Source: an uncultured Thermoleophilaceae bacterium (lineage in GTDB: Bacteria > Actinomycetota > Thermoleophilia > Solirubrobacterales > Thermoleophilaceae). From it: a DNA stretch of 64,000 bases. Shown here one piece after another: positions 15,247 to 48,141 of the stretch. Positions within the stretch are counted from its first letter, which is position 1, and each line of letters opens with the position of its first letter. The position numbers and the translations under genes were made by a program. Below the pieces are notes generated by a model. The model did no database searches and was not told the origin of the DNA. It worked only from the letters and a program-made list of their open reading frames with translations. The DNA is taken from assembly GCA_963716215.1 (NCBI GenBank), contig OY970298.1, forward strand, positions 3,508,416 to 3,572,415, read 5' to 3'.

Positions 15247-15264
15247 TATGCCGAACCGACGGGC

Positions 15265-24404: not shown

Positions 24405-25706
24405 ATGGCGCGAGTGCCGCCGCCCCCGCAAGGCTTTCGAGCCCGTCTCGCCGCGATCGCCGGCGCCGCGCTGGTCATACGCGTCCTGTACACGGTCCTG
24501 ATCGGGCAGGACACCCCCGGCGTCGGCGATTTCTTCTACTACCACGGCATCGCCAACGGGCTCGCCGCCGGGCGCGGGTTCGTCGACCCGTTCGTATCGA
24601 CCGACGCCGCGCCCTATCCGAGCGCCCTCCATCCCCCGCTCTGGCCGCTGGCGCTCGCCGCGGCCTCGAAGCTGGGCGCCACCACGCTGCTGGCCCATCG
24701 CCTCGTCGGCTGCCTGATCGGCGCCGCGGTCGTGGCCGTGGTCGGGCTGCTCGGGCGGCAGGTGGCCGGCGAGCGCGTGGGGCTGATCGCCGCCGCGATC
24801 GCGGCCGTCTACCCCACCCTGGTCGCCGCCGACGGCTCCCTGATGAGCGAGACGCTGTACGGGCTCTGGGTGGCCATAGCGCTGCTGCTTGCCTACCGGC
24901 TGCTGCAACGACCTGGCGTCGGCCTCGCCGCCGTGCTGGGCGCGGTGATCGGGCTCGCCGCCCTGACCCGCGGGGAGGCGGTGCTGTTCGTGCCGCTGCT
25001 GGCGATCCCAATCGCCTGGCGCGGCGGGCGCGCAGGGCGGCTGACGCGGATCGCGGCGACGGTGGCCGCGACGGCGCTGGTGATCGCTCCCTGGACGGTG
25101 CGCAACTGGATCGAGCTCGACCGCCCGATTCTGATCTCCACCAACGAGAGCACCCTCGTCGCCGGCGCCAACTGCGACCCCGCCTATTCCGGACCGGACA
25201 TCGGCTTCTGGCGCCTCGACTGCATCTCGGAGCGAGCGCCGGGCCTGAACGAGGCCGAGCAGGCCGAGATCTGGCGGCGCGAGGGCCGCAGCTACGCCGA
25301 GGACCATGCCGGCCGGCTGCTGGCGGTGGTCGTGCCGGTGCGCCTGCTGCGCACGTGGGACCTCTACCAGACCCGGCGCCAGGCCAGGTTCGCCGAGGGG
25401 CGCGCGCTGCGAGTGACGCAGGCCGGCGTGGCCGTCTACTTCGTGCTGCTGGCGCTGGCGGTCTGGGGCGTGGTGCTGCTGCGCCGCCGGCGTGCTCCGC
25501 TGCTGATACTGCTGGCGCCGTTCGTGGTGGTGTGCGTCTCGAGCGCGGCCGGCTTCGGCCTGCCGCGATTCCGTCAGGCGGCGGAGATCTCCATCGTCGT
25601 GCTCGCCGCCGTGGCCGTGTCCGGGCTGCTGGCCCGCAGGTCCCAGGCGCGCACCAGCAACGGCGCGGCGAACAAGATCATGAGCGGCTCCAGCGGCACG
25701 CGGTAG
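24405..25706 (+). CDS. ArnT/PMT-like GT-C glycosyltransferase, type B copy 2
   Basis: ATG 24405 (MARVPPPPQGFRARLAAIAGAALVIRVLY...) with a GGGGAAA SD. Motifs GDFFYYHGIANGLAAGRGF, GLAALTRGEAVLFVPLL, PWTVRNWIELDRPILISTN. Confidence 0.8.
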   Translation: MARVPPPPQGFRARLAAIAGAALVIRVLYTVLIGQDTPGVGDFFYYHGIANGLAAGRGFVDPFVSTDAAPYPSALHPPLWPLALAAASKLGATTLLAHRLVGCLIGAAVVAVVGLLGRQVAGERVGLIAAAIAAVYPTLVAADGSLMSETLYGLWVAIALLLAYRLLQRPGVGLAAVLGAVIGLAALTRGEAVLFVPLLAIPIAWRGGRAGRLTRIAATVAATALVIAPWTVRNWIELDRPILISTNESTLVAGANCDPAYSGPDIGFWRLDCISERAPGLNEAEQAEIWRREGRSYAEDHAGRLLAVVVPVRLLRTWDLYQTRRQARFAEGRALRVTQAGVAVYFVLLALAVWGVVLLRRRRAPLLILLAPFVVVCVSSAAGFGLPRFRQAAEISIVVLAAVAVSGLLARRSQARTSNGAANKIMSGSSGTR

Positions 25707-26863
25707 CGGTAGTTGCCGTAGTAGACGAAGCCGAACATGACCAGGGAGCCCGCGAACAGCACGAGCGCGCCGCGCGTGACCGGGCGGCGCCAGAGCGCGC
25801 GCCAGAACAGCAGGATCGAGGCCAGCGTCGCCGCCAGCAGCCCGTAGTAGGCGAAGTCCGCCGCCACCCGGATCGGGGTGCCGATCTCGGCGCCGATCGG
25901 TCGCCTCCCGGACTCGCTGGCGTTGACCCACTCGAGCGCCCAGGAGTCGCCGCGGTTGAGGTTGAGCAGCTTGAGCGGGATCAGCTCGAGCTCGCGGCGC
26001 GGGTTGGAGACCATGTACTCGAGCGCCTCGGAGCGCAGGTTCTTCGCCTCCTCGACCTCCGGGTTGTCGCTCGACCGGCGCCCGATCAGATCCTGGCTGG
26101 CGTAGCTCTGCCCGCCGGTGGCGCCGGGGTTGTGGCCGGACCACAGCGTGGTGCTCGAGTTCGTCGAGAGCGGGATGAACGCGTCCATCACGATCGCGTT
26201 GCGGATCGTCCACGGCGCGATCACGACGGCGAGCATGGCCACCACCACGGCGGCCCGGGCCAGCAGCGCGCGGCGCGGCAGCGCCGGCCACCACGCCGCC
26301 AGCACGACCGGCACCAGCAGCAGCCCCTCGCCGCGCGTGAGCGTGAGCAGGCCGATGGCCGCGCCCAGCGCCACCGCGGAGGAGGGCCGTGGCGGCAGTA
26401 CGGCGAGCAGCAGGAAGAACCCCACCAGCAGGAACGTGTAGAGCGTCTCCGCCAGCAGCACGTCGGTCCAGAGGATCTGGCCCGGCAGCACGGCGAGCAC
26501 GGCGGCCCCGACCAGCGCCTCGCGGCGGCCGAAGACCCTCCGGATGAGCAGGTACAGGAGCGGGACGGTGAGCGTGCCCAGCACCGCGTTGAAGAGCTCA
26601 CCAACTATCTGCTCGTGCGAGCCGGTGAGGCGGAACACGAACGAGAGCACCAGCGGGAACACCGGCGGCCACTGCGCGGTCGGCACACCGGGCACGAAGG
26701 CGAAGCCGTCGCCGTTGGCAAGCGAGTTGGCGGTCAGGCCGTAGAAGAAGGTGTCGTTGAAGACGAACTCGTCGCGCTCCACGGCGAGCACGAGCGCGAG
26801 GCGGAGGGCCAGCGCGAGCCCGCTCAGCAACGCCACCAGGCGCACTTCCTTCGAGCGCCACAT
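25574..26863 (-). CDS. ArnT/PMT-like GT-C glycosyltransferase, type A copy 2
   Basis: 429 aa from the ATG at 26863 (MWRSKEVRLVALLSGLALALRL...). Shares NDTFFYGLTANSLANGDGFA, PGVPTAQWPPVFP, LTRGEGLLLVP, RELELIPLKLLNLNRGDSWALEWVNA and YYGNYRYR with copy 1. Confidence 0.8.
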   Translation of the reverse strand: MWRSKEVRLVALLSGLALALRLALVLAVERDEFVFNDTFFYGLTANSLANGDGFAFVPGVPTAQWPPVFPLVLSFVFRLTGSHEQIVGELFNAVLGTLTVPLLYLLIRRVFGRREALVGAAVLAVLPGQILWTDVLLAETLYTFLLVGFFLLLAVLPPRPSSAVALGAAIGLLTLTRGEGLLLVPVVLAAWWPALPRRALLARAAVVVAMLAVVIAPWTIRNAIVMDAFIPLSTNSSTTLWSGHNPGATGGQSYASQDLIGRRSSDNPEVEEAKNLRSEALEYMVSNPRRELELIPLKLLNLNRGDSWALEWVNASESGRRPIGAEIGTPIRVAADFAYYGLLAATLASILLFWRALWRRPVTRGALVLFAGSLVMFGFVYYGNYRYRVPLEPLMILFAAPLLVRAWDLRASSPDTATAASTTMEISAA

Positions 26864-26868
26864 AACCC

Positions 26869-28089
26869 CTACTCTGCTGCCGCGGCGACCGCGGGGGGCG
26901 TGGCCTGGCGCCGTCGCGAGCCGAGCTCCAGGCGCCCGAGCGGACGCTCGATCAGAACGTAGCTCAGCGCCCCGAACACCATTGCGATGGCCAGCGTGAC
27001 GACCGGCCACGCGACGTAGGAGACGATGCCAGAGGGGGGATCGAAGCCCCAGTCCTTGAGCTGCTCGATCACGGAGAGGTGGTAGAGCAGGATGCCGTAG
27101 GAGATCAGCGAGATGAAGATCAGGGGGCGGTTGTTCAGGAGCCGCCTGGTCACGCCGTGGCGCGCGTCGCCGATGGCGAAGGGCAGGAAGATGAACAGGG
27201 CGATCAGCAGGTTGAGCGTGTGCTCGGCGAAGTACTGGAGGTGGTCGTCGGGGTTGGGGTAGGGGCCGGTGAGGCCGATCTGGGTGCTCACGAACCAGAA
27301 GCTCACCAGCGCGATCGCCAGCCCGAGCGACGGCCAGCGGGCGAACGCCTGGAACGCGCCCGGCAGCGGCGCCTCCCCGGGCTCGGGCCGCGCGCCCGTC
27401 CAGCGCTTGCCGAACCACACGCTGAGTACGGCCAGCGCCATGCCGGGCGCGAGCCAGTCGAAGTAGGCGAACAGGAAGTAGCTGATCCCGTATTCGCCAC
27501 GCAGGCCGGCCAGGTCCACCACGATCCGGTAGACGACGGTGAACGCGATCAGCGCACCGCAGCCCCAGAGCTCGGCCCTGAAGCGCCCCGCCCGGTCGGC
27601 CCCGAAGCGCCGCATGAAAGCGGCGTAGAGCGGCACGAACACGTAGAAGGCGACGAGGATGCAGAGGAACCAGGCGATTGCGATGCCGCCCAGCACCGTC
27701 TCGGGCGAGTAGACCTGCCCGAACAGGTAGTAGGTGGGGATCCCGCGCGCCGTGAAGACCCCCACGCCGGCAGTGGTGATCCACAGCCCTGTGATCGTGA
27801 GCGCCACCCAGTAGGGCGGCACCACCCGCAGGAAGCGGTTGCGCGCGTAGCGCTTGAGGTCCGGCGGCGGCCGGTCGTCGAGCCGCGAGCGCGCGTACGG
27901 CCGGTAGATCAGGAAGGCCGACAGCATCATGAAGACCGCGATCGTGAACTCGAAGCGCGTCGTGTAGGGGTGCAGCGTCGCGCTCTGGTGGGCGCCAGAC
28001 GGCCCGAACGTGTGCGCGAGCAGGATCGCGAGCGTCGTCAGCGCCCGCAGGGAGTCGATCAGGGGAAGGCGCCCGGCGGCCGAGCTCAT
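26869..28089 (-). CDS. acyltransferase family 3 (AT3) membrane O-acyltransferase
   Basis: 406-aa ORF with RLPLIDSLRALTTLAILLAH..., LSAFLIYRPY, RFLRVVPPYW and a YGILLYH motif near the C-terminus. Confidence 0.85.
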   Translation of the reverse strand: MSSAAGRLPLIDSLRALTTLAILLAHTFGPSGAHQSATLHPYTTRFEFTIAVFMMLSAFLIYRPYARSRLDDRPPPDLKRYARNRFLRVVPPYWVALTITGLWITTAGVGVFTARGIPTYYLFGQVYSPETVLGGIAIAWFLCILVAFYVFVPLYAAFMRRFGADRAGRFRAELWGCGALIAFTVVYRIVVDLAGLRGEYGISYFLFAYFDWLAPGMALAVLSVWFGKRWTGARPEPGEAPLPGAFQAFARWPSLGLAIALVSFWFVSTQIGLTGPYPNPDDHLQYFAEHTLNLLIALFIFLPFAIGDARHGVTRRLLNNRPLIFISLISYGILLYHLSVIEQLKDWGFDPPSGIVSYVAWPVVTLAIAMVFGALSYVLIERPLGRLELGSRRRQATPPAVAAAAE

Positions 28090-28097
28090 CCCGGCCG

Positions 28098-28103
28098 AGA
28101 GTA
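28098..28103 (-). promoter_or_regulatory. -10 box candidate TACTCT, 8 nt upstream of ATG 28089 (leaderless)
   Basis: Minus-strand TAnnnT (plus strand AGAGTA). Confidence 0.35.
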
Positions 28104-28132
28104 CCAGCGGTTTGCTCGCCGGGAGCGGGTAG

Positions 28133-30157
28133 CTAGGAGGCGCCGATGAGCTCGGATTCGGGCCGCCTGCGGGCCGCTTCTCCGCGCTCGGCCCCGGCCC
28201 GCAGCTGCCGCCGCCCGAGCAGGAACGCCAGCCCGTAGAGCACGGCCACGAGCACCACCAGCGCCCGGTAGCCCGTCAGCAGCGAGGCGTACTCGAGCAG
28301 GCCGCCGACCATCGCCCCGAGCAGGTTCGCCCCGAACGCCGTCGTCGACGAGCTGGTGTCGGCGAAGCGCTGCGAGAAGACCAGGTTGGCGAGGAAGATC
28401 GGCAGGAACGTGATCCCCGACGCGACGATGAAGCGCGGCACCGGCGCCAGCGCGAGCAGCGAGTCCGGAGCGACGAAGTAGGCAGGCACGAGCCCGGCCA
28501 GCAGGACCGCGTAGAGCACCTGCGGCCGCGGCAATCGCACGCGGCGCGCCGTCTCGACGGCGGCCAGCACGGTGATCAGGATGCCCGCGAACACCAGCGC
28601 GTTGACGAGCCAGGTGGTGCCGAACAGCAGCGCGAACTGCACGACGCTCTTGGTCTCGAGCAGCAGGAACGCCGCGCCCATGAAGAAGAGGTCGGCGTAG
28701 GCGAACATCGGGCGCAGGCGCCCGGCCGCGGCGCGGATCGCGACCACCGAGGCGAGCAGGATCGCCAGGATCGTGGCGAGGTAGAAGCCCGGGATGCCCG
28801 GCTCGCGCAGGTACGGGAACGGGTGGTCGTCGGTGGACGGCTCCGGGACGGGCGTGGTGGCGGTGGCCCAGCGCGTGTCGCATCGGAGCGAGGCGGGATT
28901 GCGGCTGGTCGTGAGCACCGCCAGCCGCCCCTCGCCCCCGAAGCTGTCCACGCACGGCGGCCGCCCGAACGCCTCGGCGAGCGTGTTGGCGTAGCGGTCG
29001 ATCAGCCACTGCTCGCGGTAGTAGTTGTACATCGCGAACACCCCGTTCGGAGTGAGGTGGTCGCGCACCGCTTCGATGGCCTGCTTCGTGAACAGGTAGC
29101 TCTCGAGCCGCAGCGACGACTGGCCGGCCACGAGCGTCAGCGAGTCCGGCAGGGCGAGCAGGATGCGGTCGTAGTGCTCGTCGGAGCGCTCCAGGAACGC
29201 GCGGCCGTCCGTGATGTGCACGTCCACGCGCGGATCGGAATAGGGCTTGTCGGGGTGCAGCTCGCGGCCGAGCTCGTACAACCGCCGGTCGATCTCGACC
29301 GCGTCCACGTGGCCGGCCCCCTGGGCGAGCGCGATCGCCACGTCGTTCCCGCTCCCGGCGCCGATGATGAGCACGTTGTCCTTGGGGACGCCGGGGGCGG
29401 TGCGCTCGTACGGGCGGGCGTAGAGCGGGTTGCGCGTGGACGGCAGGATCACCTGGTGCGGGATGCCGTTCACGCTGATCTCGGGGGGCGAGTCCGGCTC
29501 GTCCTCGTGGCGGTCGATGGTGACCTTGTAGTAGGGCGACCAGTGCGTGTCGGGCTGCACCGACTCCACGGCCAGGAGCGCCACGAGCGCCACGAGCGCC
29601 ACGCCACCGACGATCCGCAGCCGTCGGCCCAGCAGCACGGCGAAGATGACTGCCACGACCACCCCCCACGCCACCGGCGGCAGGCTCAGGAACGACAGGC
29701 CCGCGAAGGCGACCACGCCGAGCAGCGAGCCGAACAGGTCGAGCCGGTAGGCGTCGAGCGCCCGGAAGCGGGCGAAGGTGCGCGCCACGCCCTCGCCGAT
29801 GAAGGCCATCGTCGCCGCGACGGCCACGAAGATCACGGTCAGCGTCAGCCATCGCGGCGGCCCCTCGCTCTGGAGCTCGCCGAAGTAGATGATCCCCTCG
29901 GCCGAGCGCCGGATCTCGACCGGGAACACGAGCACGAACACCACCAGCAGGACGAGCGCGACGGGCGCTAGCGGGAACAGGTCGCGCTCGCGGCTGGCGC
30001 GCAGGAACCCGAGTCCGATCCCGAGGAACGACCCCAGCAGGACGAAGTTCGAGAAGTACGACAGGTAGACGATGTTCGAGCCCGTCCAGCGGATCAGCGC
30101 CAGCTCGACGAAGAGCATGAGGAAGCTGAGGAGGACTAGCCGGCGCTTGTCTGACAT
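28133..30157 (-). CDS. polytopic membrane protein with central spermidine-synthase-fold (class I MTase-like) domain
   Basis: 674-aa ORF. N-terminal ~200 aa hold several TM helices (LLSFLMLFVELALIRW...). The centre has VLIIGAGSGNDVAIALA...VEIDRRLYELGRE...ITDGRAFLERSDEHYDRILLALPDS (SpeE-like GxGxG / D / DGR motifs). The C-terminal ~200 aa are again multi-TM. Confidence 0.75.
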   Translation of the reverse strand: MSDKRRLVLLSFLMLFVELALIRWTGSNIVYLSYFSNFVLLGSFLGIGLGFLRASRERDLFPLAPVALVLLVVFVLVFPVEIRRSAEGIIYFGELQSEGPPRWLTLTVIFVAVAATMAFIGEGVARTFARFRALDAYRLDLFGSLLGVVAFAGLSFLSLPPVAWGVVVAVIFAVLLGRRLRIVGGVALVALVALLAVESVQPDTHWSPYYKVTIDRHEDEPDSPPEISVNGIPHQVILPSTRNPLYARPYERTAPGVPKDNVLIIGAGSGNDVAIALAQGAGHVDAVEIDRRLYELGRELHPDKPYSDPRVDVHITDGRAFLERSDEHYDRILLALPDSLTLVAGQSSLRLESYLFTKQAIEAVRDHLTPNGVFAMYNYYREQWLIDRYANTLAEAFGRPPCVDSFGGEGRLAVLTTSRNPASLRCDTRWATATTPVPEPSTDDHPFPYLREPGIPGFYLATILAILLASVVAIRAAAGRLRPMFAYADLFFMGAAFLLLETKSVVQFALLFGTTWLVNALVFAGILITVLAAVETARRVRLPRPQVLYAVLLAGLVPAYFVAPDSLLALAPVPRFIVASGITFLPIFLANLVFSQRFADTSSSTTAFGANLLGAMVGGLLEYASLLTGYRALVVLVAVLYGLAFLLGRRQLRAGAERGEAARRRPESELIGAS

Positions 30158-30166
30158 GGGCTGGAG

Positions 30167-30180
30167 GGCCAGGACTGGCC
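30167..30180. promoter_or_regulatory. 6-2-6 inverted repeat GGCCAG-GA-CTGGCC in the divergent control region
   Basis: Lies in the predicted 38-nt 5' leader of the minus-strand SpeE-like gene. Could be an operator or an RNA hairpin. Confidence 0.3.
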
Positions 30181-30195
30181 TCGCGGGAGCGGGTC

Positions 30196-30201
30196 ACCCT
30201 A
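30196..30201 (-). promoter_or_regulatory. -10 box candidate TAGGGT(G) for gene 28133..30157
   Basis: Minus-strand TAGGGTG, 38 nt upstream of ATG 30157. Mirror image of the plus-strand box at 30228. Confidence 0.3.
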
Positions 30202-30227
30202 CCGATGCCGCCTTCAGGCGACGCCGC

Positions 30228-30233
30228 TAGGGT
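30228..30233 (+). promoter_or_regulatory. -10 box candidate TAGGGT(G), 8 nt upstream of ATG 30242 (leaderless)
   Basis: CTAGGGTG. The same heptamer occurs at 39734 and, on the minus strand, at 30196. Confidence 0.35.
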
Positions 30234-30241
30234 GCCCGCGC

Positions 30242-32608
30242 ATGGTGGAGCGCGCACCGGCCCGCGTACTGCTCGCGATTGGACTCGTTGCGGGGTGCAC
30301 CCTGGCCCTCCAAGTGCTGCTTACGCGGCTGTACGCGGCCGTGCTCTTCTACCACTTCGGGTTCCTCGCGATCTCGCTCGCGCTGCTCGGGACGGGCGCC
30401 GGCGCGATTGCCGTGTACGTACGGCCGGCCTGGTTCGAGCAGGTGTCGCTGAACGCGATGTTGGCGCGTGCCTCGATCGCGTTCGCGCTGCTGCTGGCGC
30501 TGGTCCCGCTGGTGCTCGTGAGGCTCGACTACTCGTTCGCCGACACGGTCACGCCAGGGTTCGTGGCGAACCTCGCCGCCGCGTGCGCGCTGTCGGCGAT
30601 CACGTTCCTGGCCGGCGGGATCGCGATCGCGCTAGCGATCAAGGCCTACGCCCGCAGGGCCGGGCGCGTATACGCGGCGGACCTCGCGGGGGCGGCGATC
30701 GGCGCGTTCGTGGCCGTGCCGTTCATGTGGAGCGTGCCGGTGCCGACGCTGCTGGTGGGGCTCGGCGTGCCGGCGGCGCTGGCCGCTTGGCTGGTGGCGG
30801 ACCCCCGCCGGCCGGAGCGCCGGATGGCCCTGGGCGCTGCGCTCGTGGCGGTCGCTGTGGTCGTGCTCTCCGAGACGACCGCGGCCACGCACGTCAAGCC
30901 GTTCACGCGCGTGTCGGGGGCCGAGCCGGTGTCGGACCGCTGGACGCCGCTGAACCGGGTCGTCGGCTATCCGCCGCCGAACGGCCGGGGCTCGCTGGCC
31001 TACGTGTTCTACGACTCCATCTACGCCCCCGCGATGGTGCGCCGGCCCGGAGAGCCGATGCCGGACTGGGAGCCGCTGCGCCTGGGTCCGCAGAGCATCG
31101 GCTACGCGCTGACCGGCCCGGGTAGCGCCCTGGTGATCGGCGGAGGCGGCGGTCGCGACATCCTCAACGCGCTCTCGTCGCGTCAGCGCCAGGTGGACGT
31201 GATCGAGCTCAACGAGGCGATCCGCGAGGCGGTCGACGAGGACCTGCGTCCCTGGACGGGGGCGCCGTACAGCCTCCCGGGCGTCGACGTGACGGTCGGC
31301 GACGGGCGCTCGACCCTGGCCGCCAGCGACGAGCGCTACGACCAGGTGCACATCGGCTTCACCGACACCCTGAGCGCCAACTCGGCCCAGGCGTTCGCGC
31401 TCACCGAGTCCAACCTGTACACGCTCGAGGCCTTCGACGAGTACCTCGACCACCTCGCCCCCGGCGGCGTGCTGAACGTCTCCCGCCTGCGGCGGCTGGT
31501 CGGCGACGAGGCGCTGCGGGCGACGGTGCTCACGCTGGAGGCGCTCCGCCGCCACGGCGTCGAGAACCCGTCGCGCAACGTCGTGGTGATCCTGGGCGAG
31601 GACTTCTTCGACGGCGAGTTCGGCACGGTGCTCGCTCGCATGGAGCCGTTCACGCCGAGCGAGCTGGCCCTGGTGCGGCGACTCGCGGACGAGCGCGGCC
31701 TCGGCGTGGCCTACGCGCCGGGTGGGCCATACCGCAAGGAGTGGGCCGGCCTGGGTACCGCGTCGAGCCCGCTCGAGTTCTGCCGCTCGTACCGCCTCGA
31801 CGTCTGCCCGCCGACCGACGACAAGCCCTTCTTCTTCAACATGCGACGGCTGTCGGACGTGGGCTCGTCGGAGGCCGACGGCTACTTCTACTCGATCGAT
31901 CCGGTGCTGGTCCTGCTCGCCACGCTGCTCGTGCTCGTGGTGCTCTCGGTGTTCGCCTTCCTGCTGCCGCTGCTGTTGGTGCGCGGCCCGCGCCGCCCGC
32001 CGGCCCGCTCGCTGGTGCTGTTCGCGGCGATCGGCCTCGGGTTCCTGGTACTCGAGGTGTCGCTGGTGCAGCGCTTCGTGCTGTTTCTCGGCTTCCCGAC
32101 CTACGCGCTCTCCGTCGTCCTGTTCGCACTGCTCCTGTTCGCGGGGCTGGGGGCGTTCCTGAGCGCCCGGTGGACCCGGCCGCGGCACGCGCTCACGCTC
32201 ACGCTCTCGCTCGCGCTGGCGCTGATCCTGGCCGCGGCCTTCGCCCTCGAGCCGCTGCTCGACGCGCTGATCGGGTTGCCCTTCGGGCTGCGCGTGGCCA
32301 CCGCGATCGCGGTGCTCGCCCCGTTCGGGCTCACGCTCGGCACCGCGATGCCGGTCGGCCTCGCCCGCATCGAGGAGCTGCATCCGGGCGCCACGCCGTT
32401 CGCCTGGGGGCTGAACGGCATCATGTCGGTCGTCGCCTCGGTGCTGGCCGTGGCGGTGGCGATCTCGTTCGGGTTCAGGGCCACCACGCTCGTCGCATTC
32501 GCCTGCTACGCCGTGGCGCTCGGCGACGTAGTGCTCGGCCGCTGGCCGGGCACGGCCGAGGTCGAGGAGCGCGCCCCAGTGGCGGGCCTCGAGCCGGCGC
32601 GCCCGTAG
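30242..32608 (+). CDS. polytopic membrane protein with central spermidine-synthase-fold domain (paralog of 28133..30157)
   Basis: 788-aa ORF with a multi-TM N-terminus. The centre has ALVIGGGGGRDILNAL...VIELNEAIREAV...VGDGRSTLAASDERYDQVHIGFTDT. C-terminal multi-TM region (LGFLVLEVSLVQRF...GLNGIMSVVASVLAV). Confidence 0.75.
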   Translation: MVERAPARVLLAIGLVAGCTLALQVLLTRLYAAVLFYHFGFLAISLALLGTGAGAIAVYVRPAWFEQVSLNAMLARASIAFALLLALVPLVLVRLDYSFADTVTPGFVANLAAACALSAITFLAGGIAIALAIKAYARRAGRVYAADLAGAAIGAFVAVPFMWSVPVPTLLVGLGVPAALAAWLVADPRRPERRMALGAALVAVAVVVLSETTAATHVKPFTRVSGAEPVSDRWTPLNRVVGYPPPNGRGSLAYVFYDSIYAPAMVRRPGEPMPDWEPLRLGPQSIGYALTGPGSALVIGGGGGRDILNALSSRQRQVDVIELNEAIREAVDEDLRPWTGAPYSLPGVDVTVGDGRSTLAASDERYDQVHIGFTDTLSANSAQAFALTESNLYTLEAFDEYLDHLAPGGVLNVSRLRRLVGDEALRATVLTLEALRRHGVENPSRNVVVILGEDFFDGEFGTVLARMEPFTPSELALVRRLADERGLGVAYAPGGPYRKEWAGLGTASSPLEFCRSYRLDVCPPTDDKPFFFNMRRLSDVGSSEADGYFYSIDPVLVLLATLLVLVVLSVFAFLLPLLLVRGPRRPPARSLVLFAAIGLGFLVLEVSLVQRFVLFLGFPTYALSVVLFALLLFAGLGAFLSARWTRPRHALTLTLSLALALILAAAFALEPLLDALIGLPFGLRVATAIAVLAPFGLTLGTAMPVGLARIEELHPGATPFAWGLNGIMSVVASVLAVAVAISFGFRATTLVAFACYAVALGDVVLGRWPGTAEVEERAPVAGLEPARP

Positions 32609-32618
32609 GCTGGCCGCG

Positions 32619-34568
32619 ATGTCACCGGTCGCGCACCACGTCGTGCTCGGGCTCGCGATCGCGGCTCTGGGCGGCGCCGGGCTGCGCCTCGCGTCGCTGG
32701 CGGCCCCCAGGGGGCCGGAGCGCGCGGTGGCCGCCGTGGTCATCGCCGCGTCGATCGCGGCACTCGAGGCGCTTGCGCTCGGCCTCGTGAGGCTGGGTAC
32801 GAACACCGCGGCGCTCGCCGGCGCCGCCGCGCTCACGTGGGTGCTGGCGCGCACCCTCCTGCCGGCCCCGGCCTCACCGCCGGGGAGCGAGCTGGCGGCG
32901 GCCTGGCGCGCGGCCTCGCCCGGCCGCCGGGTGGCGCTGGGCGCGGTCGCGGGCGTGTGGCTGGCCTGGGCGGTGTGGCTGCTGCGCTATCCGGCGCTCG
33001 GCATCGACACGGTGGCCTACCACCTGACCGACGTCGTCGCCTGGGTGGGCGACGGCAGCCCGGGCGCGATCGAGCCGCTGTTCCCCAACGTGCCGGTCGG
33101 CAACTACCCGCTCACCAACGAGGTGCTGCTGGCCTGGGGCACCGGGATAGCGCGGAGCTTCGTGTTCGTCGGCCTCTGGGCGCCGGCGATGATGGCGCTG
33201 CTCGTGGTGGCCGGGTGGGGCGCGCTGCGCGCCGTGCGCGTCCCGGTGGGCGCCGCCGCGGCGGCGGTCGCGGCCCTCTGCGTGCTGCCCGTGCTCACGC
33301 ACTACCAGCAGAACGGCGCGAACACCGACATCCCCGCGTTCGCCTGGCTCGTGAGCGCCGCGTTCTTGTCGCTGGCGTCGGCACGGCGCCCGGCGCTGAT
33401 CGCGCCGGCCCTACTCGCCGCCGCGCTCGCCGTCGGCACGAAGACGACGACGCTCCCGCTGGCCCTGCTGGTGCTGGTGCTCGCGCTGGTGGGAGCCCGG
33501 GGGGAGCTGCGCCGGCTAGCGTGGCCGCTGGCGCTGGCGGGCGCCGCGGCGGTCGCGATCGGCGGCTACTGGTACCTGCGCAACCTGGTCGACCACGGCT
33601 CGCCCTTCTGGCCCTTCGTCGAGACCCCCTGGAGCGACCCGCTGCCGAAGGAGATCGGGCCAGAGCGGGGCGTGAACGCCAGCTTCCTCGACCACCCGCG
33701 CTTCACGCTCGAGCGGGTCGGCGACGAGTGGCTCGACCTGTTCGGCGGCGGCTTCTTCCTGCTGGCCGCGGCGTTCGTGGCGCCGCTGCTGGCTCGCGAC
33801 CGGCGCGTGACGGCCGCGGCGGTCGTGACGGCGGTCTCCGTGCTGATCTGGATGAACGCGCCGTTCACAGGCGCCTCGGTGCGTGAGTACGAGGTGGCCA
33901 CGGCCTCGACGGTCCGCTACCTGATCCCCGCGCTGGGCGCGGCCGTCTTCACGCTGGCGCTGGCGGCCACCTCGGCGAGCCTGGCGGCGCGCCGGTTCGC
34001 GGTGCTCTCGCTCGGGGCGGGGTTCGTGGTGAACCTGGTGCAGACCGCCGACCTCGGCTTCCCGAGCGTGCCGCGGGCGTGGGTGCCGCTCGCCGGGGCC
34101 GCGGTCGGCGCCGCCGTCGCCGCACTGGCCGGGCGGGTGACGGCGCGCCCGCCCACGCTGCCCGCCGCAGCGCGGACGCTGCTCACGGCGCTCGCGTGCG
34201 CCGCTGTGGGCGCGCTCACCGCCATCGGGGCCGCCGGCTTCGTGGAGCGCCATGCGCAGACGGCGGACCTGTACGGCACGGACACGATCCGCTGGTTCAC
34301 CGAGCAGCCGGAGTTCGACGACGGCGACGACCCGATCTGGGCGGCGCCCGTCAATCTGGCGCCGCTGGGCGGCGACCGGCTCCAGCACGAGTTCCGCTGG
34401 ATCGAGGACGACGCGCCCTGCTCGCTGGTGCGGGCGCGAGCCCGGGCGAGCTGGGTGATCGTGATCATGTTCCCGCCCGACGGGAGGCTGCTGTCGCCGA
34501 GCGGCCGCTGCCTCGAGAACCAGCGCCCGGCCCACAAGGGCGCCGGCTTCAGCGTCTACAGGGGCTGA
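32619..34568 (+). CDS. unrecognised ~650-aa polytopic GT-C-like membrane protein, paralog 1
   Basis: 649-aa intact ORF with ~12 TM segments. Motifs conserved across the paralogs: LEALALGLV, GIDTVAYHL, NEVLLAW, HYQQNGANTDIPAFAWL, GTKTTTLPL, GGYWYLRNLVDHGSPFWP, WMNAPFTG, GDRLQHEF. Soluble C-terminal domain with a Cys pair, ending GAGFSVYRG. Confidence 0.7.
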   Translation: MSPVAHHVVLGLAIAALGGAGLRLASLAAPRGPERAVAAVVIAASIAALEALALGLVRLGTNTAALAGAAALTWVLARTLLPAPASPPGSELAAAWRAASPGRRVALGAVAGVWLAWAVWLLRYPALGIDTVAYHLTDVVAWVGDGSPGAIEPLFPNVPVGNYPLTNEVLLAWGTGIARSFVFVGLWAPAMMALLVVAGWGALRAVRVPVGAAAAAVAALCVLPVLTHYQQNGANTDIPAFAWLVSAAFLSLASARRPALIAPALLAAALAVGTKTTTLPLALLVLVLALVGARGELRRLAWPLALAGAAAVAIGGYWYLRNLVDHGSPFWPFVETPWSDPLPKEIGPERGVNASFLDHPRFTLERVGDEWLDLFGGGFFLLAAAFVAPLLARDRRVTAAAVVTAVSVLIWMNAPFTGASVREYEVATASTVRYLIPALGAAVFTLALAATSASLAARRFAVLSLGAGFVVNLVQTADLGFPSVPRAWVPLAGAAVGAAVAALAGRVTARPPTLPAAARTLLTALACAAVGALTAIGAAGFVERHAQTADLYGTDTIRWFTEQPEFDDGDDPIWAAPVNLAPLGGDRLQHEFRWIEDDAPCSLVRARARASWVIVIMFPPDGRLLSPSGRCLENQRPAHKGAGFSVYRG

Positions 34569-34576
34569 CCTGACGA

Positions 34577-36521
34577 ATGTCGAGCTTCGTCGAAAACGCG
34601 GTGCTGGTCCTGTCGGTGGCGGCGCTGGCGGCCGCCGGGGTGCGAGCGGCCTCCCAGCTCGCCCCGGCCGGGCTGGAGCGCGCAGTCACGGCGGCCACCT
34701 TCGCCACCGCTGCGGCCGGGCTCGAGGCGCTCGCGCTGGGGCTGGTGGGGCTCGGGGGCGACACGGTCCCGCTCGCGCTGGCCGCCGCCGCCACCTGGGC
34801 GCTCGCCCTGGCCGTGTTCCCCGCGCCGCGCGTCCCGCTGCTCGCCGAGGTGAGCGGCGCGTGGAGGGAGGCCCCGCCCGCCGCACGTGCCCTCGTGGCC
34901 GCCGTCGCCGGTGCTGGCACCGCGTGGGCGGCCTGGCTCGTGCACGTGCCGGCGCTCGGGTACGACAGCGTCAACTACCACCTGCCCGAAGCCGTCATCT
35001 GGGTGCGCGACGGCAACCCCGGCGCGGTCATCCCGGGGATCCTCGACTCCGTCACCTACCTGCCGCTGATGAGCGAGGTGCTGCTCGCCTGGGGAGTGGG
35101 CATCTCCCGCAGCCTCGTGCCGGCCTCGCTGCTGGCGCCCGCCTCGATGCTGCTGCTGGCCGTGTCGGGCTGGCTGGGGCTGCGCACACTCCGTGTCGGG
35201 CGCGTGGCGACGGCGGTGGCGGTGGGCACGCTCTGCGCGGCGCCGATGGTCACGCACTACCAGATGAACGGCGCCTACAACGACCTCCCGGCGCTGTCCT
35301 GGCTGGTCGCGGCCGGCGCGCTCGCCGCGGCCTCGCGGCGCAACCCCGCCATGCTGGCTCCGGCGCTGCTGGCCGCGGCGCTCGCGGCCGGCACCAAGAC
35401 GACCGCGCTGCCGCTGTCGCTGTTCGTGCTGGTGCTGGCGGCGTGGCCGCATCGGCGCCGGCTGCGCCCGCTGGCGCTGCCGCTGGCGCTCGCGGGCGGC
35501 GCGGCGCTGGTGGTCGGCGGGTTCTGGTACGCCCGCGACTTCGTGGTGCACGGCTCGCCGTTCTGGCCGGACGTTGCCGCCCCGTGGGGCGACGCCACGC
35601 CGGTCGAGTCGCCGAGCTTCCTCGACCGGCCGCGCGAGACCATCGACCGCTTCCTCGACGACTACCTCGAGCTGTTCGGTGGCGGCCTGCTGGCGATCGG
35701 TGGCGCGCTGGCGGTGCCCTTCGCCACCCGCGACCGCGCCGTGTGGGTGGCCGGCGCCGCGACCGCGGTCTCCTTCCTGCTGTGGCTCAACGCGCCCGCC
35801 ACCGGAGCGGCCGAGGGCGGCTCGGTGGTGGGCACGCTGTCGACCGTCCGCTACGTGCTGCCCGCGCTGGCGGCCGCGACCGTCACGCTGGCCCTGGCCA
35901 CGCGCAACACGCGGCCTGGCGGGCCGGGCCGCCGGGCTGATCCTGGCGGCGGCGCTGGTGATCAACGTGCTGCAGACGCGCGCGCTCGGCTATCCCAGCG
36001 TGCCGGGCGCTCACGTGCTGGCGCTGGGCGCGCTGCTCGGCGCGGGCGCCGCCCTTGCGGCCGGGGCGCTGTCGGCGCGCCTGCCGGCCGTGCCCCGCTG
36101 GGCCGTCGCGGCTGCCGGCGTTGCGGTGCTGGCCGCCGCGGCCGGTGCGCTCGCCGTGGGCACGAGCGGGTACGTCGAGCGTCACGCCCGCGCCAACGAG
36201 CACACCGTCTACCCCTACGTGGGGATGGTGAGCTGGCTGGCGGAGCAGCCGCTCTACCGCAGCGGCGACGACCCGGTGGCGATCGTGCCGATCCCGAACG
36301 GCGTCGTCGTGGGCGACCGGCTGCGGCACCGCATCGAGGTGGTGCCGTTCGAGGAGCCGTGCGACGCGGTGCGCGCGCGGCTGCGGGATCACTGGGTGCT
36401 GTTGAACTTCCTCGACGTGGTGCGCGACTTCACCGCCGCCCGCTGCCTGGAGGACGTGAAGCCGACCTTCGAGGGCTCGGGCTTCCGCGTCTACCGGCCC
36501 TCGGGCGCCTCGCCGCCGTAG
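34577..36521 (+). pseudogene. unrecognised GT-C-like membrane protein, paralog 2, frame disrupted near 35911-35916
   Basis: The N-terminal frame (track ORF 34577...) is homologous to paralog 1 up to ...TVTLALATRNTR. Homology then continues in the frame of track ORF 35574..36521 (LAGRAAGLILAAALVINVLQTRALGYPSVP...GSGFRVYRPSGASPP*). This is a 1-nt indel or an error. Confidence 0.7.
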
Positions 36522-39752: not shown

Positions 39753-42126
39753 ATGTCGATTTCGACCGACAGCCGCGTCGCGCGCCTGGCTGGAGCGCCG
39801 CGAGTACCTGGCCGCGACGGCGATCCTCGGCCTGATCACGTGCCTGTGGTTCTGGCCGCTGCTGATCGGCGAGCAGCTCGGGCAGAGCTTCATCCTGCAT
39901 CAGTTCGCACCGTGGCTGGGCGGCGTGGACCCCGCCTCGCTGCCGCGCCGCGGACCGTTCGTGGACGCGGCGGTGGCGTTCCACCCGTGGGCGGAGGTGG
40001 CGCGCGACCAGGTCCTCGCGGGCCACCTGCCGCTGTGGAACCCGTCGGAGTGGGCCGGCATGACGCTGGTGGGCAACATGCAGTCGGCGCTGTTCTTCCC
40101 GCCCAGCTGGCTGCTGATCGTGTTCCCGTTCGGCTACGGGTGGGGCGTCTTCTCCGCCGTCAAAGTGCTGCTGTCGGGGCTCGGGGCCTACGCCCTCGCG
40201 CGCGAGCTGGGAGTGGGCCGCGGCGGCGCGCTGGTCGCAGGTGCCGTGTACATGCTGTCCGCGCCGCTGATGCTGTGGCTGCAGTACCCGCTCGGCAGCG
40301 TCTTCGCGATCTTCCCGTGGCTGCTGTGGGCAACCACCCGACTCGCCAGGCGCCCCACACGGGCTTCGATCGCGGCCGTGGCGCTCACGACCGCCCTGAT
40401 GCTGTTCGCCGGGCACCCGGAGTCGGCGTTCATCGCGGTGTCGGCGATCGCCGTGTACCTGGTGGCGCTGGTTGCCTTCGACCACCGGGCGAACCCGGAG
40501 GGCTCACGCCCGCTGCGGATCGCCGTGCGGTGGGCGGCCGGCGGGCTGCTCGGCGCGGCGATCGCGGCCGTGGCCCTGATCCCGTTCCTGCTCGCGCTCG
40601 GCGACAGCGTCACCTGGGGCGAGCGCGGCAAGCTGATCCCGGCCGACGCCCCGTCGCTCGCCGACCTGCTGCAGTGGGCGATGCCGGGGCTGTTCGGGGA
40701 CGGTGAGCCGAACCTGTACGGCAGGTGGCCGTTCGGCTACTTCGGGCTGCCCGCGCTGATCCTGGCGTTCGTGGGGCTCGTCCGCTACCGCCGCGAGGCG
40801 GGTGCCCGTGCGCTGCTGGCGATGACGGCCGTCACGTTCCTGGCGATTTACCGCGTGCCCCCGGTGCGCTGGCTGCTGGAGGAGGTCCCGCCATGGGCGA
40901 ACACCTACCTGGGGCCCGAGCGGCTCTACTTCGTGATCGCGCTGGCGGGCGCCGTCGGCGCCGGCGCCGGCTTCCACGCGCTCGCCCACCGGCCCCTGCC
41001 GCTGCGCCGCGTCGTCGTGGTGACCGCCGCGGCGGCGCTCGTGATCGCGGTCGGCGCCGGGCTGGCCCAGGTGGCGGGCGACCTGGGCGCGCCCGCCTCG
41101 GTGAAGCGCGAGAGCATCGCCGTCACGGCGCTGCTGCTGCTTGTGACCGGCGGCCTGCTGGCGGCCGTCGGCCGGGTCCGTCCCGTGACGGCTGCGGCGG
41201 CGGCGCTGGCGGTGGCCGTGCTGAGCCTGGTCGGGATGCAGAACTTCAACCTCACCCTGCCCCCTGACGAGGCCTACCCGGCCACTCCGGCGGGGATCGC
41301 CCAGCTCCAAGACCAGCCGGGAACGTTCCGAGTCGGCGTGTTCCGCGCCAGCGGCGCCGAGCTGACGATGCCCGCGAACACGGCGGGCCTGTACGAGCTC
41401 GAGAGCATCGAGGGCTACGACTATCCGCTGTCGCGGCGGTGGTCCGACTTCCAGTCCGGCGTGCTCGGTTTCGGCGGCTCGGCCTTCCCGGAGCTGCGGA
41501 CCGCCCAGGAGCCGCCGCGCGGGCCCGCCCTGGCCGCGCTGCGGATGATGAACGTGCGGTACTACGTGGGCGCGCCCGGCACGCGCGCCGAGTCGCCGGA
41601 CTTCCAGACCGTCTACAGCGGGCGCGACAGCGTGGTGCTGCGTGACCGCCAGGCGCTGCCGCGCGCGTACGTGGCGCCGGTCGCGCGTCCGCTGTCGGAC
41701 GACGACGCCCTGGCGCTGCTCGAGCGGGGTGGGCTCGACCCGCGCCGCGAGGCGCTCGTGCCGGAGGGCGAGCAGGCGCCCGCCGGAGGCGCGTTCCGCG
41801 CCGCGCGCGTGGAGGTGCTCGCCCCCGACCACGTGCGGGTGCACGTGCCGCGCGGAGCGGCGGGCTGGCTGGTGCTGGCCAACGGGTACTCGCCGGACTG
41901 GAAGGCCGAGGTCGACGGGCGCGAGACCGAGCTGCGGCCGACCAACTTCGCCGCGATGGGCGTCCCGGTGGAGAGCGGGACCGAGGTCGTGGACTTCCGG
42001 CTCGACCGCACCGGGCTCTGGCTCGGCGCCGCGATCAGCCTGATCGCGCTTGCGTGCGCTGGGCTGCTCTTGGTGAGCGGCAGAGCGCGATCACGTCGAG
42101 GGCCTGCTCCAGACCCTCGGACCTGA
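39753..42126 (+). CDS. YfhO-family polytopic membrane glycosyltransferase, copy 1 (N-terminus uncertain; possible 1-nt frame disruption at ~39775-39795)
   Basis: Track ORF 39925..42126 matches the YfhO family (HPWAEVARDQVLAGHLPLWNPSEWAGMTLVGNMQSALFFP...). The same frame is open and paralog-conserved upstream to 39790 (LERREYLAATAILGLITCLWFWPLLIGEQLGQSF) with no ATG/GTG/TTG in it. The nearest ATG (39753, behind a -10 box) is in the -1 frame. Confidence 0.7.
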
Positions 42127-42823
42127 GCTCGAAGTCGTCCACCGTGATCGCCCCCGCGCCGGGGTGCGGGTGCTCGCGCTCGGTGGTTAGGCGCCGGTCG
42201 TAGAGTCGCTGGAGGACCGTGCGTGGGACGAACCGGCGCAGCCGCAGCGGGTCCTTGCGCAGCAGCGCGTCGAGCTTGAGGCGCTCACCGGAGACGAGCT
42301 CGAGATAGCGCTCCGACCCGAACAGCCCGTGCATCTCGACCCTCTCGAAGTACGGCTCGCAGGCCGCCCGCAGCTGGGTGTGGTCGTACTCGACGTAGTG
42401 GTACGGGTCGATGATCTCGTCGGGGCGGGCGAAGGTGAGCCGGTTGGGGGTCACGAAGATCGCGGTGCCCTCCGGTTCGAGCACTCGCGCGATCTCCTCG
42501 AGCACGCGCCGGTGGTCGGGCACGTGCTCGATCGACTGCACCGACAGCACCGCGGCGAAGCTGGCGTCGCCGAACGGGATCTCGCGCATGTCGGCCACGA
42601 CCGTCTCGCGCTGCTGTCCCGCGAGCGCTTCGGGGTCCAGGTCGAGCCCGACGCTCTCGCGCGGCGCCAGCTCGCTGAACGAGTGCCCCACGCCGCAGCC
42701 GAGGTCCAACACCCGGCCGTCCGGCAGCAGCGGCGCGCACAGCCGGTAGGCCGCCACGTGGCGCTGCCAGGTCGGGTTGAAGCCGCCGGCGGGGGTGGAT
42801 ACACGCTCGCCGGTGACCGTCAC
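42035..42823 (-). CDS. class I SAM-dependent methyltransferase
   Basis: 262-aa ORF with VLDLGCGVGHS motif I and SVQSIEHVPDH. GTGA overlaps the upstream GT2 stop. Confidence 0.85.
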   Translation of the reverse strand: MTVTGERVSTPAGGFNPTWQRHVAAYRLCAPLLPDGRVLDLGCGVGHSFSELAPRESVGLDLDPEALAGQQRETVVADMREIPFGDASFAAVLSVQSIEHVPDHRRVLEEIARVLEPEGTAIFVTPNRLTFARPDEIIDPYHYVEYDHTQLRAACEPYFERVEMHGLFGSERYLELVSGERLKLDALLRKDPLRLRRFVPRTVLQRLYDRRLTTEREHPHPGAGAITVDDFELRSEGLEQALDVIALCRSPRAAQRTQARSG

Positions 42824-43626
42824 GCCATGTACTTCCGCGACTTCAGCACCCCGCGGCGGTGCAGCACCAGCCGCGCCCCGGCCCAGAGGGTCTTCAGGCC
42901 GTACACGGTCGCCGGTCGCAGCCCGATCGAGGACGCGTCGTCGAAGTAGCGTGTGCGGGCCGGCACCTCCGCGATCCGGAAGCCAAAGTGCGATGCCTGC
43001 ATCAGCATCTCGGAGTCGAAGCTGAAGTCGAGCGCGTTGCGCAGGAACGGGACCTCCCGCAGCAGCCGGTTCGAGTAGGCGCGGTAGCCCGTGTGCAGCT
43101 CCGACAGGTGGGTGCCGAGGATGCGGTTCTCGATCGTGGTCAGGAAGCGGTTGGCCACGTACTTGTAGAGCGGCATCCCGCCCTCGCGGGCCATTCCCGG
43201 CTCGGCCAGCCGGGAGCCCAGCACCATGTCGGCCTCGCCGTCGAGGATCGGCTGGATCAGCCGCGGGATCAGCGACGGCTCGTACTGCCCGTCCGGGTGC
43301 AGCATCACCACGACCTCGGCATCGCGCTGAAGCGCCTGGAGGTAACAGGTCTTCTGGTTGCCGCCATAGCCGACGTTGTGGGGATGCCAGATCAGGTGGA
43401 TCGGCAGCCCGCGCGCGAGCTCGACGGTGTTGTCGGTCGACTTGTCGTCGACCAGGATGATCTCGTCCACCACCTCGCGCGGGATCGCGTTCACGGTGCG
43501 CTCGAGCGTGAGCGCGGCGTTGCGCGCCGGCATCACGACGATCACCTTCGCCTGCCGCTGGGCGGCGGTGGTGGCGCCGTCGACGTCGAGCGCGCGCTCG
43601 ACGTCCTCTTCTCGAACGTCAGCCAT
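42820..43626 (-). CDS. GT2-family glycosyltransferase (polyprenyl-phosphate sugar synthase-like, soluble type)
   Basis: 268-aa ORF with VVMPARNAALTLERTV...ILVDDKSTDNT...HPDGQYEP...GSR... motifs. Confidence 0.85.
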   Translation of the reverse strand: MADVREEDVERALDVDGATTAAQRQAKVIVVMPARNAALTLERTVNAIPREVVDEIILVDDKSTDNTVELARGLPIHLIWHPHNVGYGGNQKTCYLQALQRDAEVVVMLHPDGQYEPSLIPRLIQPILDGEADMVLGSRLAEPGMAREGGMPLYKYVANRFLTTIENRILGTHLSELHTGYRAYSNRLLREVPFLRNALDFSFDSEMLMQASHFGFRIAEVPARTRYFDDASSIGLRPATVYGLKTLWAGARLVLHRRGVLKSRKYMA

Positions 43627-43635
43627 GCGGGGCCA

Positions 43636-43641
43636 AGGCTA
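43636..43641 (-). promoter_or_regulatory. -10 box candidate TAGCCT, 9 nt upstream of ATG 43626
   Basis: Minus-strand CTAGCCT (plus strand AGGCTAG). Confidence 0.35.
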
Positions 43642-48134: not shown

Positions 48135-48141
48135 GGCGGGC

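Follow-up and report, generated by a model that had tools for sequence, protein, structure and literature searches.

Two divergent genes of an uncultured Thermoleophilaceae bacterium encode proteins in which a predicted major-facilitator fold encloses a spermidine-synthase-like domain predicted to lie outside the membrane

What does a spermidine-synthase (SpeE) fold do in the middle of a polytopic membrane protein, and on which side of the membrane does it do it? This question is raised by a divergent gene pair at positions 28133-32608 of a 64,000-nucleotide stretch of the genome of an uncultured Thermoleophilaceae bacterium (contig OY970298.1; this whole stretch is referred to below as the window). 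The original prediction, made by a model from the sequence of this DNA, described two open reading frames (ORFs) of 674 and 788 amino acids, each with a central SpeE-like domain flanked on both sides by multi-transmembrane regions, and argued for a role in modification of envelope glycans or lipids. Both frames, whose products are called P0001 and P0002, were found as described, separated by an 84-bp spacer (Table 1). They were the only two frames within 28133-32608 with a coding-type composition, with G+C contents at third codon positions (GC3) of 0.97 for P0001 and 0.95 for P0002 in a window with a G+C content of 70-77%.

All motifs quoted for the central domains were present: GAGSGND, VEID, DGRAF, and LALPDS in P0001 and GGGGGRD, IELN, GDGRS, and GFTDT in P0002. 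P0001 matched the Pfam family Spermine_synth (PF01564) over residues 260-385 (E 3.3e-10; 40.3 bits against a cut-off of 22.9), while P0002 by itself remained below the cut-off (E 0.004). P0002 was identified as a SpeE-like paralogue of P0001 because of a BLASTP match (36% identity over the central 135 amino acids, E 1e-20), a match between the two family profiles (hhalign; probability 99.6%, E 2.4e-24, 519 columns running from transmembrane helix (TM) 4 to the C-terminal TM14), and its fold, which aligned to Thermus SpeE (1uir) with a Z value of 21.9.

AlphaFold2 (AF2) models built from family alignments were confident, with a predicted local distance difference test score (pLDDT) of 84.5 and a predicted template-modelling score (pTM) of 0.85 for P0001, and values of 86.6 and 0.86, respectively, for P0002. 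In both models, as in the hydropathy profiles, seven helices were followed by a mixed alpha/beta domain and by seven further helices, so that the anticipated membrane regions on both sides of the domain were indeed present. The best Foldseek matches of the P0001 domain were all SpeE proteins. Alignment with VIA-align yielded Z values of 20.6 against 1uir (260 residues aligned) and 20.3 against a Corynebacterium SpeE-like protein (3gjy) for the P0001 domain, and the value of 21.9 mentioned above, over 269 residues, for the P0002 domain. With 260-269 residues aligned to 1uir, the match therefore includes the N-terminal beta-hairpin domain of SpeE besides the Rossmann core. The tightest core fit of the P0001 domain was obtained with the C-terminal methyltransferase domain of METTL13 (5wcj; Z 17.3, root-mean-square deviation (rmsd) 2.6, 170 residues).

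Active-site positions were assigned by HMMER alignment to solved SpeE structures, and their conservation in P0001 was scored in an alignment of 98 relatives with 31-59% identity. The acid of the SpeE motif GxG(D/E)G, to which the aminopropyl amine of decarboxylated S-adenosylmethionine binds (PMC10349129), corresponds to Ser269 in P0001 and Gly303 in P0002. The Asp that opens the D-x-x-D-P motif behind strand beta-4, which is catalytic and serves amine deprotonation, corresponds to Ala335 and Gly372, respectively. Neither acid occurred in any of the relatives: position 269 was occupied by Thr (39), Ser (32), Gly (9), Ala (9), Asn (5), or Met (2), without a single Asp or Glu, and position 335 by Ala (78) or Gly (20), without Asp. 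The elements of the nucleotide site were retained. Each of the loop glycines G266, G268, and G270 was invariant (98/98), as were D317, the adenine contact, and R319 after it; the ribose contact E288 was Glu in 92 sequences and Asp in 6. The family-specific D272 and the second Asp of the D-x-x-D-P motif, D338, were each found in 97 of the 98 sequences, and a D443-x-x-P446-F447 motif directly ahead of TM8 in 97, 98, and 87, respectively. P0002 carried all of these elements (GGGGGRD, E322, D354-G-R356, G372-F-T-D375-T, and TDDKPFF), and in its own alignment G300-G304, R305, D306, E322, D354-G355-R356, T376, and C514/C522 were invariant, with D375 conserved in at least 90% of sequences. The conservation pattern indicates that the domain likely binds an adenosyl cofactor. 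The acidic motif had been anticipated to be altered, which it is, in a more specific manner: the first, catalytic Asp and the GxG(D/E)G acid are gone, while the second Asp is kept. Alignment to SpeE structures, a check proposed with the original prediction, thus showed replacement of both aminopropyl-specific acids, so that not all polyamine-binding residues are retained.

These replacements bear on the simplest explanation of the locus, namely that P0001 and P0002 are ordinary polyamine aminopropyltransferases with membrane anchors. The best sequence-model matches of the proteins were indeed the Pfam and NCBIfam SpeE models. However, the best NCBIfam SpeE equivalog scores (42.8 bits for NF002010 and 41.4 for TIGR00417) were far below the respective cut-offs of 260 and 249.55, and the domain is predicted to lie outside the membrane (see below). 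No match to the SAM decarboxylase (SpeD) family PF02675 was found in the 4.18-Mb single-contig genome, which is 93.9% complete; as a control, the same family was matched in 7 of 14 reference genomes. A canonical soluble SpeE was likewise absent from the genome, in which PF01564 had no matches beyond four membrane-embedded proteins, and none of the 21 neighbouring ORFs scanned matched a polyamine family in Pfam, in line with the expectation that no other polyamine gene would be found nearby. Aminopropyl transfer is very unlikely because both specific acids are lost, the scores lie below cut-off, and a SAM decarboxylase match is lacking. As had been proposed, the domain thus has a SpeE fold without being a bona fide aminopropyltransferase. 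We consider the anchored-synthase explanation most improbable, and P0001 and P0002 are almost certainly not polyamine synthases, which would make the name 'spermidine synthase' in public records wrong.

To identify the membrane part, both helical parts of each model were taken together in an exhaustive structure comparison. Those of P0001 matched structures of the major facilitator superfamily (MFS) with Z values of 20-22.5 over 306-340 aligned residues, among them OCTN2 (Z 22.5), 6g9x (Z 22.0), and VMAT2 and NorA (both Z 21.7). For P0002, Z values were 25-29.4 over 330-355 residues; OxlT was matched at Z 29.4 (339/393 residues, rmsd 3.4), and VMAT2, NorA, SotB, NorC, and LtaA (6s7v, Z 24.4) followed at Z 24-28. 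These values were well above the background that the tool states for helical proteins. The flanking TM regions therefore represent the N- and C-lobes of one MFS fold. That multi-TM regions flank the domain stood up to this comparison; they do not appear as mere anchors, as which they might have been taken, but as lobes of a single MFS transporter fold. TM7 and TM8 of the models are the additional central pair that MFS proteins with 14 helices are known to have. With strong evidence from the predicted fold, P0001 and P0002 can be regarded as either distant MFS members or convergent proteins.

Conservation within the membrane part followed the layout of an MFS transport cavity. The best-conserved helices among the 98 relatives of P0001 were TM1, 2, 5, 9, 10, and 13, which correspond to the cavity-lining MFS helices 1, 2, 5, 7, 8, and 11. 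The least conserved were the equivalents of the peripheral MFS helices 3, 6, 9, and 12, together with the linkers TM7 and TM8. Residues E18, R23, N37, E501, N611, and E622 of P0001 were each found in at least 93 of the 98 sequences, and in P0002 the Arg is kept, along with an Asp in TM5, the Glu of TM9, and the Asn of TM13. Judged by this conservation, the transporter part looks functional. Amine/H+ antiporters such as VMAT2 typically carry acidic residues on TM1, TM7, and TM11, and by analogy the acidic pattern on the equivalents of these helices would fit outward transport of a cationic compound such as S-adenosylmethionine (SAM).

Charge distribution was used to orient the proteins. In the P0001 family (98 relatives), short loops predicted to be inside contained 16.6 Lys and Arg residues versus 3.7 in loops predicted to be outside; in the P0002 family (36 relatives), these numbers were 14.1 and 1.2, respectively. 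Since the N-terminus of an MFS protein lies inside and is followed by seven helices, and the charge bias agrees with this arrangement, TM7 would leave the cytoplasm and TM8 re-enter the membrane, which places the SpeE-like domain outside the membrane in this prediction. Alternatively, the topology prediction may be wrong, and the domain may be a cytoplasmic, membrane-anchored SAM methyltransferase that acts on lipid-linked precursors before they are flipped. The cytoplasmic occurrence of SAM and the reliance of the outside location on prediction speak for such an arrangement. We nevertheless judge it improbable in view of a charge bias that is strong and consistent in two families, the rule that MFS N-termini are cytoplasmic, with seven hydrophobic helices ahead of the domain, and the conservation of Cys pairs in close families: C402/C426 of P0001 and C514/C522 of P0002, both within the soluble domain, were each invariant among close relatives. 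With the domain predicted outside, the question shifts from which cytoplasmic substrate it acts on to how a SAM-type cofactor arrives.

Together, these observations are consistent with a mechanism in which a single polypeptide would combine an MFS transporter (helices 1-6 and 9-14) with a SpeE-fold nucleotide-binding domain. TM7 and TM8 would carry the chain out and back, with the SpeE-like domain of ~255-340 residues on the outer face. The MFS part would move a cationic cytoplasmic donor, most likely SAM, outward and hand it to its own external domain. That domain would use it to attach a methyl group, or another alkyl group derived from SAM, to an acceptor outside the membrane. At this locus, that acceptor would most likely be the glycopolymer or lipid-linked glycan that is handled by the AT3 and putative GT-C enzymes probably co-transcribed with the pair. 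P0001 and P0002 are paralogues that share one active-site signature, and the acceptors on which they act probably differ. Architecture, orientation, acid loss, and retention of the nucleotide-site and cavity residues come from prediction and sequence comparison; it is from these that we infer donor, transport, catalysis, and acceptor. The resulting interpretation, in which P0001 and P0002 are outward-facing SAM-type alkyl or methyl transferases supplied through their own MFS channel, with an envelope glycan as the most likely acceptor here, is our preferred one, although we hold it tentatively, at somewhat less than an even chance. A more specific form of it would be a self-contained bacterial machine, whose MFS part carries SAM, possibly in exchange for S-adenosylhomocysteine (SAH), to its own SpeE-fold domain for methylation or aminocarboxypropylation of wall glycopolymers or surface molecules. 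We regard that form as rather doubtful.

Table 1. Positions in the window of the gene pair, its predicted domains, and the directly adjoining features.
Feature	Positions	Strand	Description
P0001 gene	28133..30157	-	674 aa; MFS-fold protein with inserted SpeE-like domain
P0001 residues 1-199	29561..30157	-	MFS N-lobe (TM1-6) plus extra helix TM7; helices from AF2 model
P0001 residues 200-456	28790..29560	-	SpeE-fold domain, predicted outside membrane
P0001 residues 457-674	28136..28789	-	Extra helix TM8 plus MFS C-lobe (TM9-14)
P0002 gene	30242..32608	+	788 aa; full-length paralogue of P0001, same architecture
P0002 residues 1-212	30242..30877	+	MFS N-lobe plus TM7
P0002 residues 213-553	30878..31900	+	SpeE-fold domain with extra alpha/beta insert at ~residues 420-510; predicted outside
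P0002 residues 554-788	31901..32605	+	TM8 plus MFS C-lobe
Divergent spacer	30158..30241	.	84 bp; two TAGGGT -10-like boxes pointing outward, one per strand
AT3 acyltransferase gene	26869..28089	-	PF01757 E 4.3e-17; 43 nt downstream of P0001
Polytopic gene	32619..34568	+	10 nt downstream of P0002; no Pfam match

The gene pair lies in a glycan island that contains three AT3 acyltransferases, two PMT_2-type GT-C enzymes, and YfhO, as well as GT2 and GT4 enzymes, cytoplasmic methyltransferases, a Wzx-type flippase, and Wzy_C. P0001 and the AT3 gene are probably transcribed together, as are P0002 and the polytopic gene downstream of it (Table 1); no terminators were detected in 25400-34800. Sigma-70 consensus promoters were not found in the same interval either, by a scan that is uninformative for promoters at 72% G+C. 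The TAGGGT box on the plus strand ends 8 nt ahead of the ATG of P0002, a position that suggests a leaderless transcript. Three class-I methyltransferase genes are located elsewhere in the island (42035-43638, 47250-48140, and 14566-15264). No signal peptides were found in their three products, so a cytoplasmic methylation capacity is already there besides the outward-facing domains.

This context also accommodates a different role for the pair. The MFS part might flip or export a glycolipid or lipid-linked sugar in the manner of LtaA, and the SpeE-like domain would then be a non-catalytic receiver that passes the substrate on to the GT-C, AT3, and YfhO enzymes. LtaA (6s7v) was indeed among the MFS matches, with the Z value of 24.4 given above, the cluster is rich in enzymes whose lipid-linked donors have to be available on the outer side, and the SpeE catalytic Asp is lost. 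A pure binding module, however, would not be expected to keep GxGxG, E288, and D317 at 98-100% across relatives of 31-59% identity, and the glycan-gene neighbours are missing in most family members. We therefore consider glycolipid transport unlikely, though deserving of attention.

The P0001 family is large and widely distributed. More than 8000 homologues were found at 90% clustering; at 50% clustering, 8269 clusters were obtained at E <= 1e-3 and 1480 at E <= 1e-30. Homologues down to ~34% identity still had the full architecture. Carriers include Nonomuraea, Kribbella, Streptosporangium, Nocardioides, Acidimicrobiia, and Dormibacterota, to which an atlas look-up added Chloroflexota, Acidobacteriota, and Pseudomonadota. 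Relatives of P0002 occurred chiefly in Thermoleophilia-type metagenome-assembled genomes (MAGs). In a sample of 121 genomes of the host's class, each family was present in three genomes, and the two co-occurred only in the genome from which the window derives.

The association with glycan genes recurred in a few relatives. An uncultured actinomycete MAG carried the same trio at L005:5383-13120, with a P0002-like gene on the minus strand (tblastn match at L005:5383-7752), a P0001-like gene, and an AT3 gene 7 bp downstream. The plus-strand translation of the tblastn match region has 2 stop codons. Divergent pairing was considered as a feature of the family and rejected, as this was the only one of 80 loci in which a P0002-like gene stood beside a P0001-like gene; the pairing is lineage-specific. 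A genome of the same order as the host (G053) had two P0002 paralogues 30 kb apart (C2:65595-67916, L082, and C2:97131-99440, L083), one of which lay within a 978-aa open frame; both had homologues of AT3, GT2, or methyltransferase genes of the window nearby. Among metagenome sequences, a P0001-like protein of 1102 aa (P0032) was fused to an N-terminal AT3 domain and another of 997 aa (P0254) to a C-terminal GT87 domain. A search for longer fused forms had as its sole match a 1902-aa fusion of an FtsX-like permease and PF01564 (P0394), to which little weight is attached. The glycan link is thus real at this locus and recurrent in few loci and fusions, but not universal. The envelope-glycan context of the original prediction held for the local cluster and these few recurrences and failed as a rule for the family.

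The neighbourhoods of relatives also bear on the nature of the acceptor. In 77 loci with a P0001 homologue, LCP ligase genes adjoined the homologue in 20, S8 protease genes in 15, and genes for trypsin-like proteases in 7, in all cases in related genomes. The LCP ligase neighbours agree with the preferred interpretation. The protease neighbours, in Streptosporangiaceae (15 loci) and Kribbella (7 loci), raise the possibility that P0001 and P0002 have the proposed architecture and modify, like the fungal N-terminal histidine methyltransferase (NHMT) and METTL13, secreted proteins at the N-terminus or at a side chain instead of a glycan. All characterised SpeE-fold enzymes that lack the GxG(D/E)G acid methylate protein N-termini (PMC10349129; cf. 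the match to 5wcj), which would agree with such an acceptor. The protease genes mostly lie on the opposite strand, and since the genomes concerned are related, they amount to few independent observations; moreover, the genes that adjoin the pair or are probably co-transcribed with it encode AT3 and GT-C enzymes, not secreted proteins, both in the window and in L005. On balance, a secreted-protein acceptor seems distinctly unlikely. In yet another scenario, the proteins would be carriers or holders of SAM that supply other exported SAM-dependent enzymes, their own domain merely docking the cofactor. The three methyltransferases of the window lack signal peptides and no exported SAM enzyme was frequent as a neighbour in the 77 loci, which leaves this scenario with little probability.

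Several observations weigh against the interpretation of P0001 and P0002 as outward-facing transferases of a SAM-derived group to envelope glycans. None of the Pfam and NCBIfam MFS models matched either protein at E <= 1, so MFS membership is at the level of fold only. No replacement for the lost SpeE catalytic base was identified. The Cys pair of P0001 occurred in just 12-15 of the 98 distant relatives and therefore adds little to the case for an outside location. To our knowledge, there is no established precedent for SAM on the outer side of the bacterial membrane, and SAH would be lost to the cell in the process. With respect to a glycan as acceptor, ORF clustering across the 77 loci revealed no constant operon partner, the neighbours being lineage-restricted; AT3 or GT-C genes adjoined P0001 homologues in only 2-4 of 80 loci; and the secreted-protease neighbours in two lineages suggest that the acceptor may not be a glycan. 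P0032, P0254, and P0394, finally, each come from a metagenome cluster with a single sequence and could be genuine fusions or artefacts of gene calling.

If the preferred interpretation of outward-facing, transporter-fed transferases is correct, its implications extend beyond this locus. Bacterial SAM-dependent chemistry is assumed to be cytoplasmic. In the present family, a transporter appears to carry on its outer face an adenosyl-binding fold that looks intact, which makes cofactor delivery and surface decoration testable. A widespread annotation as 'spermidine synthase' is almost certainly to be corrected as well. Culturable carriers are available in Nonomuraea, Kribbella, Streptosporangium subroseum, and Nocardioides islandensis. 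This kind of protein has already been catalogued; what is new here are the MFS lobes, the predicted outside location, and the specific acid losses.

A sister family has been catalogued as NCBIfam NF037959, 'fused MFS/spermidine synthase', a name that describes the architecture only. Like P0001 and P0002, its members have an MFS-type N-terminal membrane part fused to a SpeE-like domain, and they are common in Actinomycetota: NF037959 was found in 56 of 151 sampled genomes of this phylum, a tally that takes in one unpublished genome (G258). Unlike P0001 and P0002, members of ~500 aa have the domain at the C-terminus, without a C-lobe, and the model did not match either protein at E <= 1 (threshold of membership, 40 bits). 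Fused membrane/SpeE proteins had been described as widespread and functionally unassigned. This description proved apt, in that the family is large, NF037959 is a name only, and literature searches found no study of a characterised bacterial MFS/SpeE fusion.

Two other genes bring the number of membrane-embedded SpeE-fold proteins in the host genome to four. The third (P0243; G000:C1:1106304-1107836, L001:6305-7837, plus strand) encodes 510 aa and matched NF037959 (E 2e-54, 185 bits). It has an MFS motif-A-like GGRLADR loop and, in its SpeE motif TIDAYR, keeps the first Asp and has lost the second, the reverse of P0001; its neighbours, a DAO oxidoreductase and an AMP-binding enzyme, gave no functional lead. 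The fourth (G000:C1:2269422-2271644, L085:5423-7645, plus strand) encodes 740 aa, with the domain at ~443-659, near the C-terminus, and an NF037959 match at E 1.9e-13. Single frames of 800-950 aa in several genomes of Actinomycetota (e.g., G234:C63:73249-74535) contained two tandem matches to the N-terminal, membrane half of the NF037959 model, which suggests that duplication of the N-lobe module gave rise to the C-lobe of the long forms.

Compared with its separate parents, the architecture combines familiar elements. With SpeE (Thermus 1uir, human 2o06), P0001 and P0002 share the fold, the glycine loop, the VEID-type Glu, the D-G adenine contact, and the second Asp of D-x-x-D-P, whereas they lack the acid specific for decarboxylated SAM (dcSAM) and the catalytic Asp, and their domain is built into a transporter, with a predicted extracytoplasmic location. 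Like 14-helix MFS proteins of the DHA2 type (e.g., NorC, 7d5p), they have two six-helix lobes and two central extra helices. VMAT2-like cation/H+ antiporters carry acidic residues on TM1 and on the TM7 and TM11 equivalents, as does P0001. We know of no MFS protein with an enzyme-fold domain between the two central helices.

The only characterised analogue of P0001 and P0002 that was found is NHMT of filamentous fungi (Aspergillus nidulans AN4663; Batth et al., 2023, PMC10349129), in which seven TM helices are joined to a SpeE-fold N-terminal histidine methyltransferase that methylates secreted proteins. In that study, the missing acid of GxG(D/E)G was used to tell the methyltransferase from spermidine synthases, and the 7TM region was restricted to filamentous fungi and had no structural match (PMC10349129). 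The order of seven TM helices and a SpeE-fold domain is the same as in P0001 and P0002, the GxG(D/E)G acid is likewise replaced (by Ile in NHMT and by Ser or Gly here), and the Glu that binds ribose is retained. NHMT has nothing beyond the catalytic domain; P0001 and P0002 add seven helices that complete the MFS fold. NHMT acts on proteins outside the cytoplasm.

The relay logic proposed for P0001 and P0002 also has a counterpart in unrelated proteins. In AT3-SGNH O-acetyltransferases (OafA/OatA), the membrane domain passes a donor group from the cytoplasm on to an outward-facing transferase domain, which decorates envelope glycans. Folds and donor are unrelated to those considered here, and the comparison is one of analogy; AT3 genes are co-located with those of P0001 and P0002 and, in P0032, once fused to a relative.

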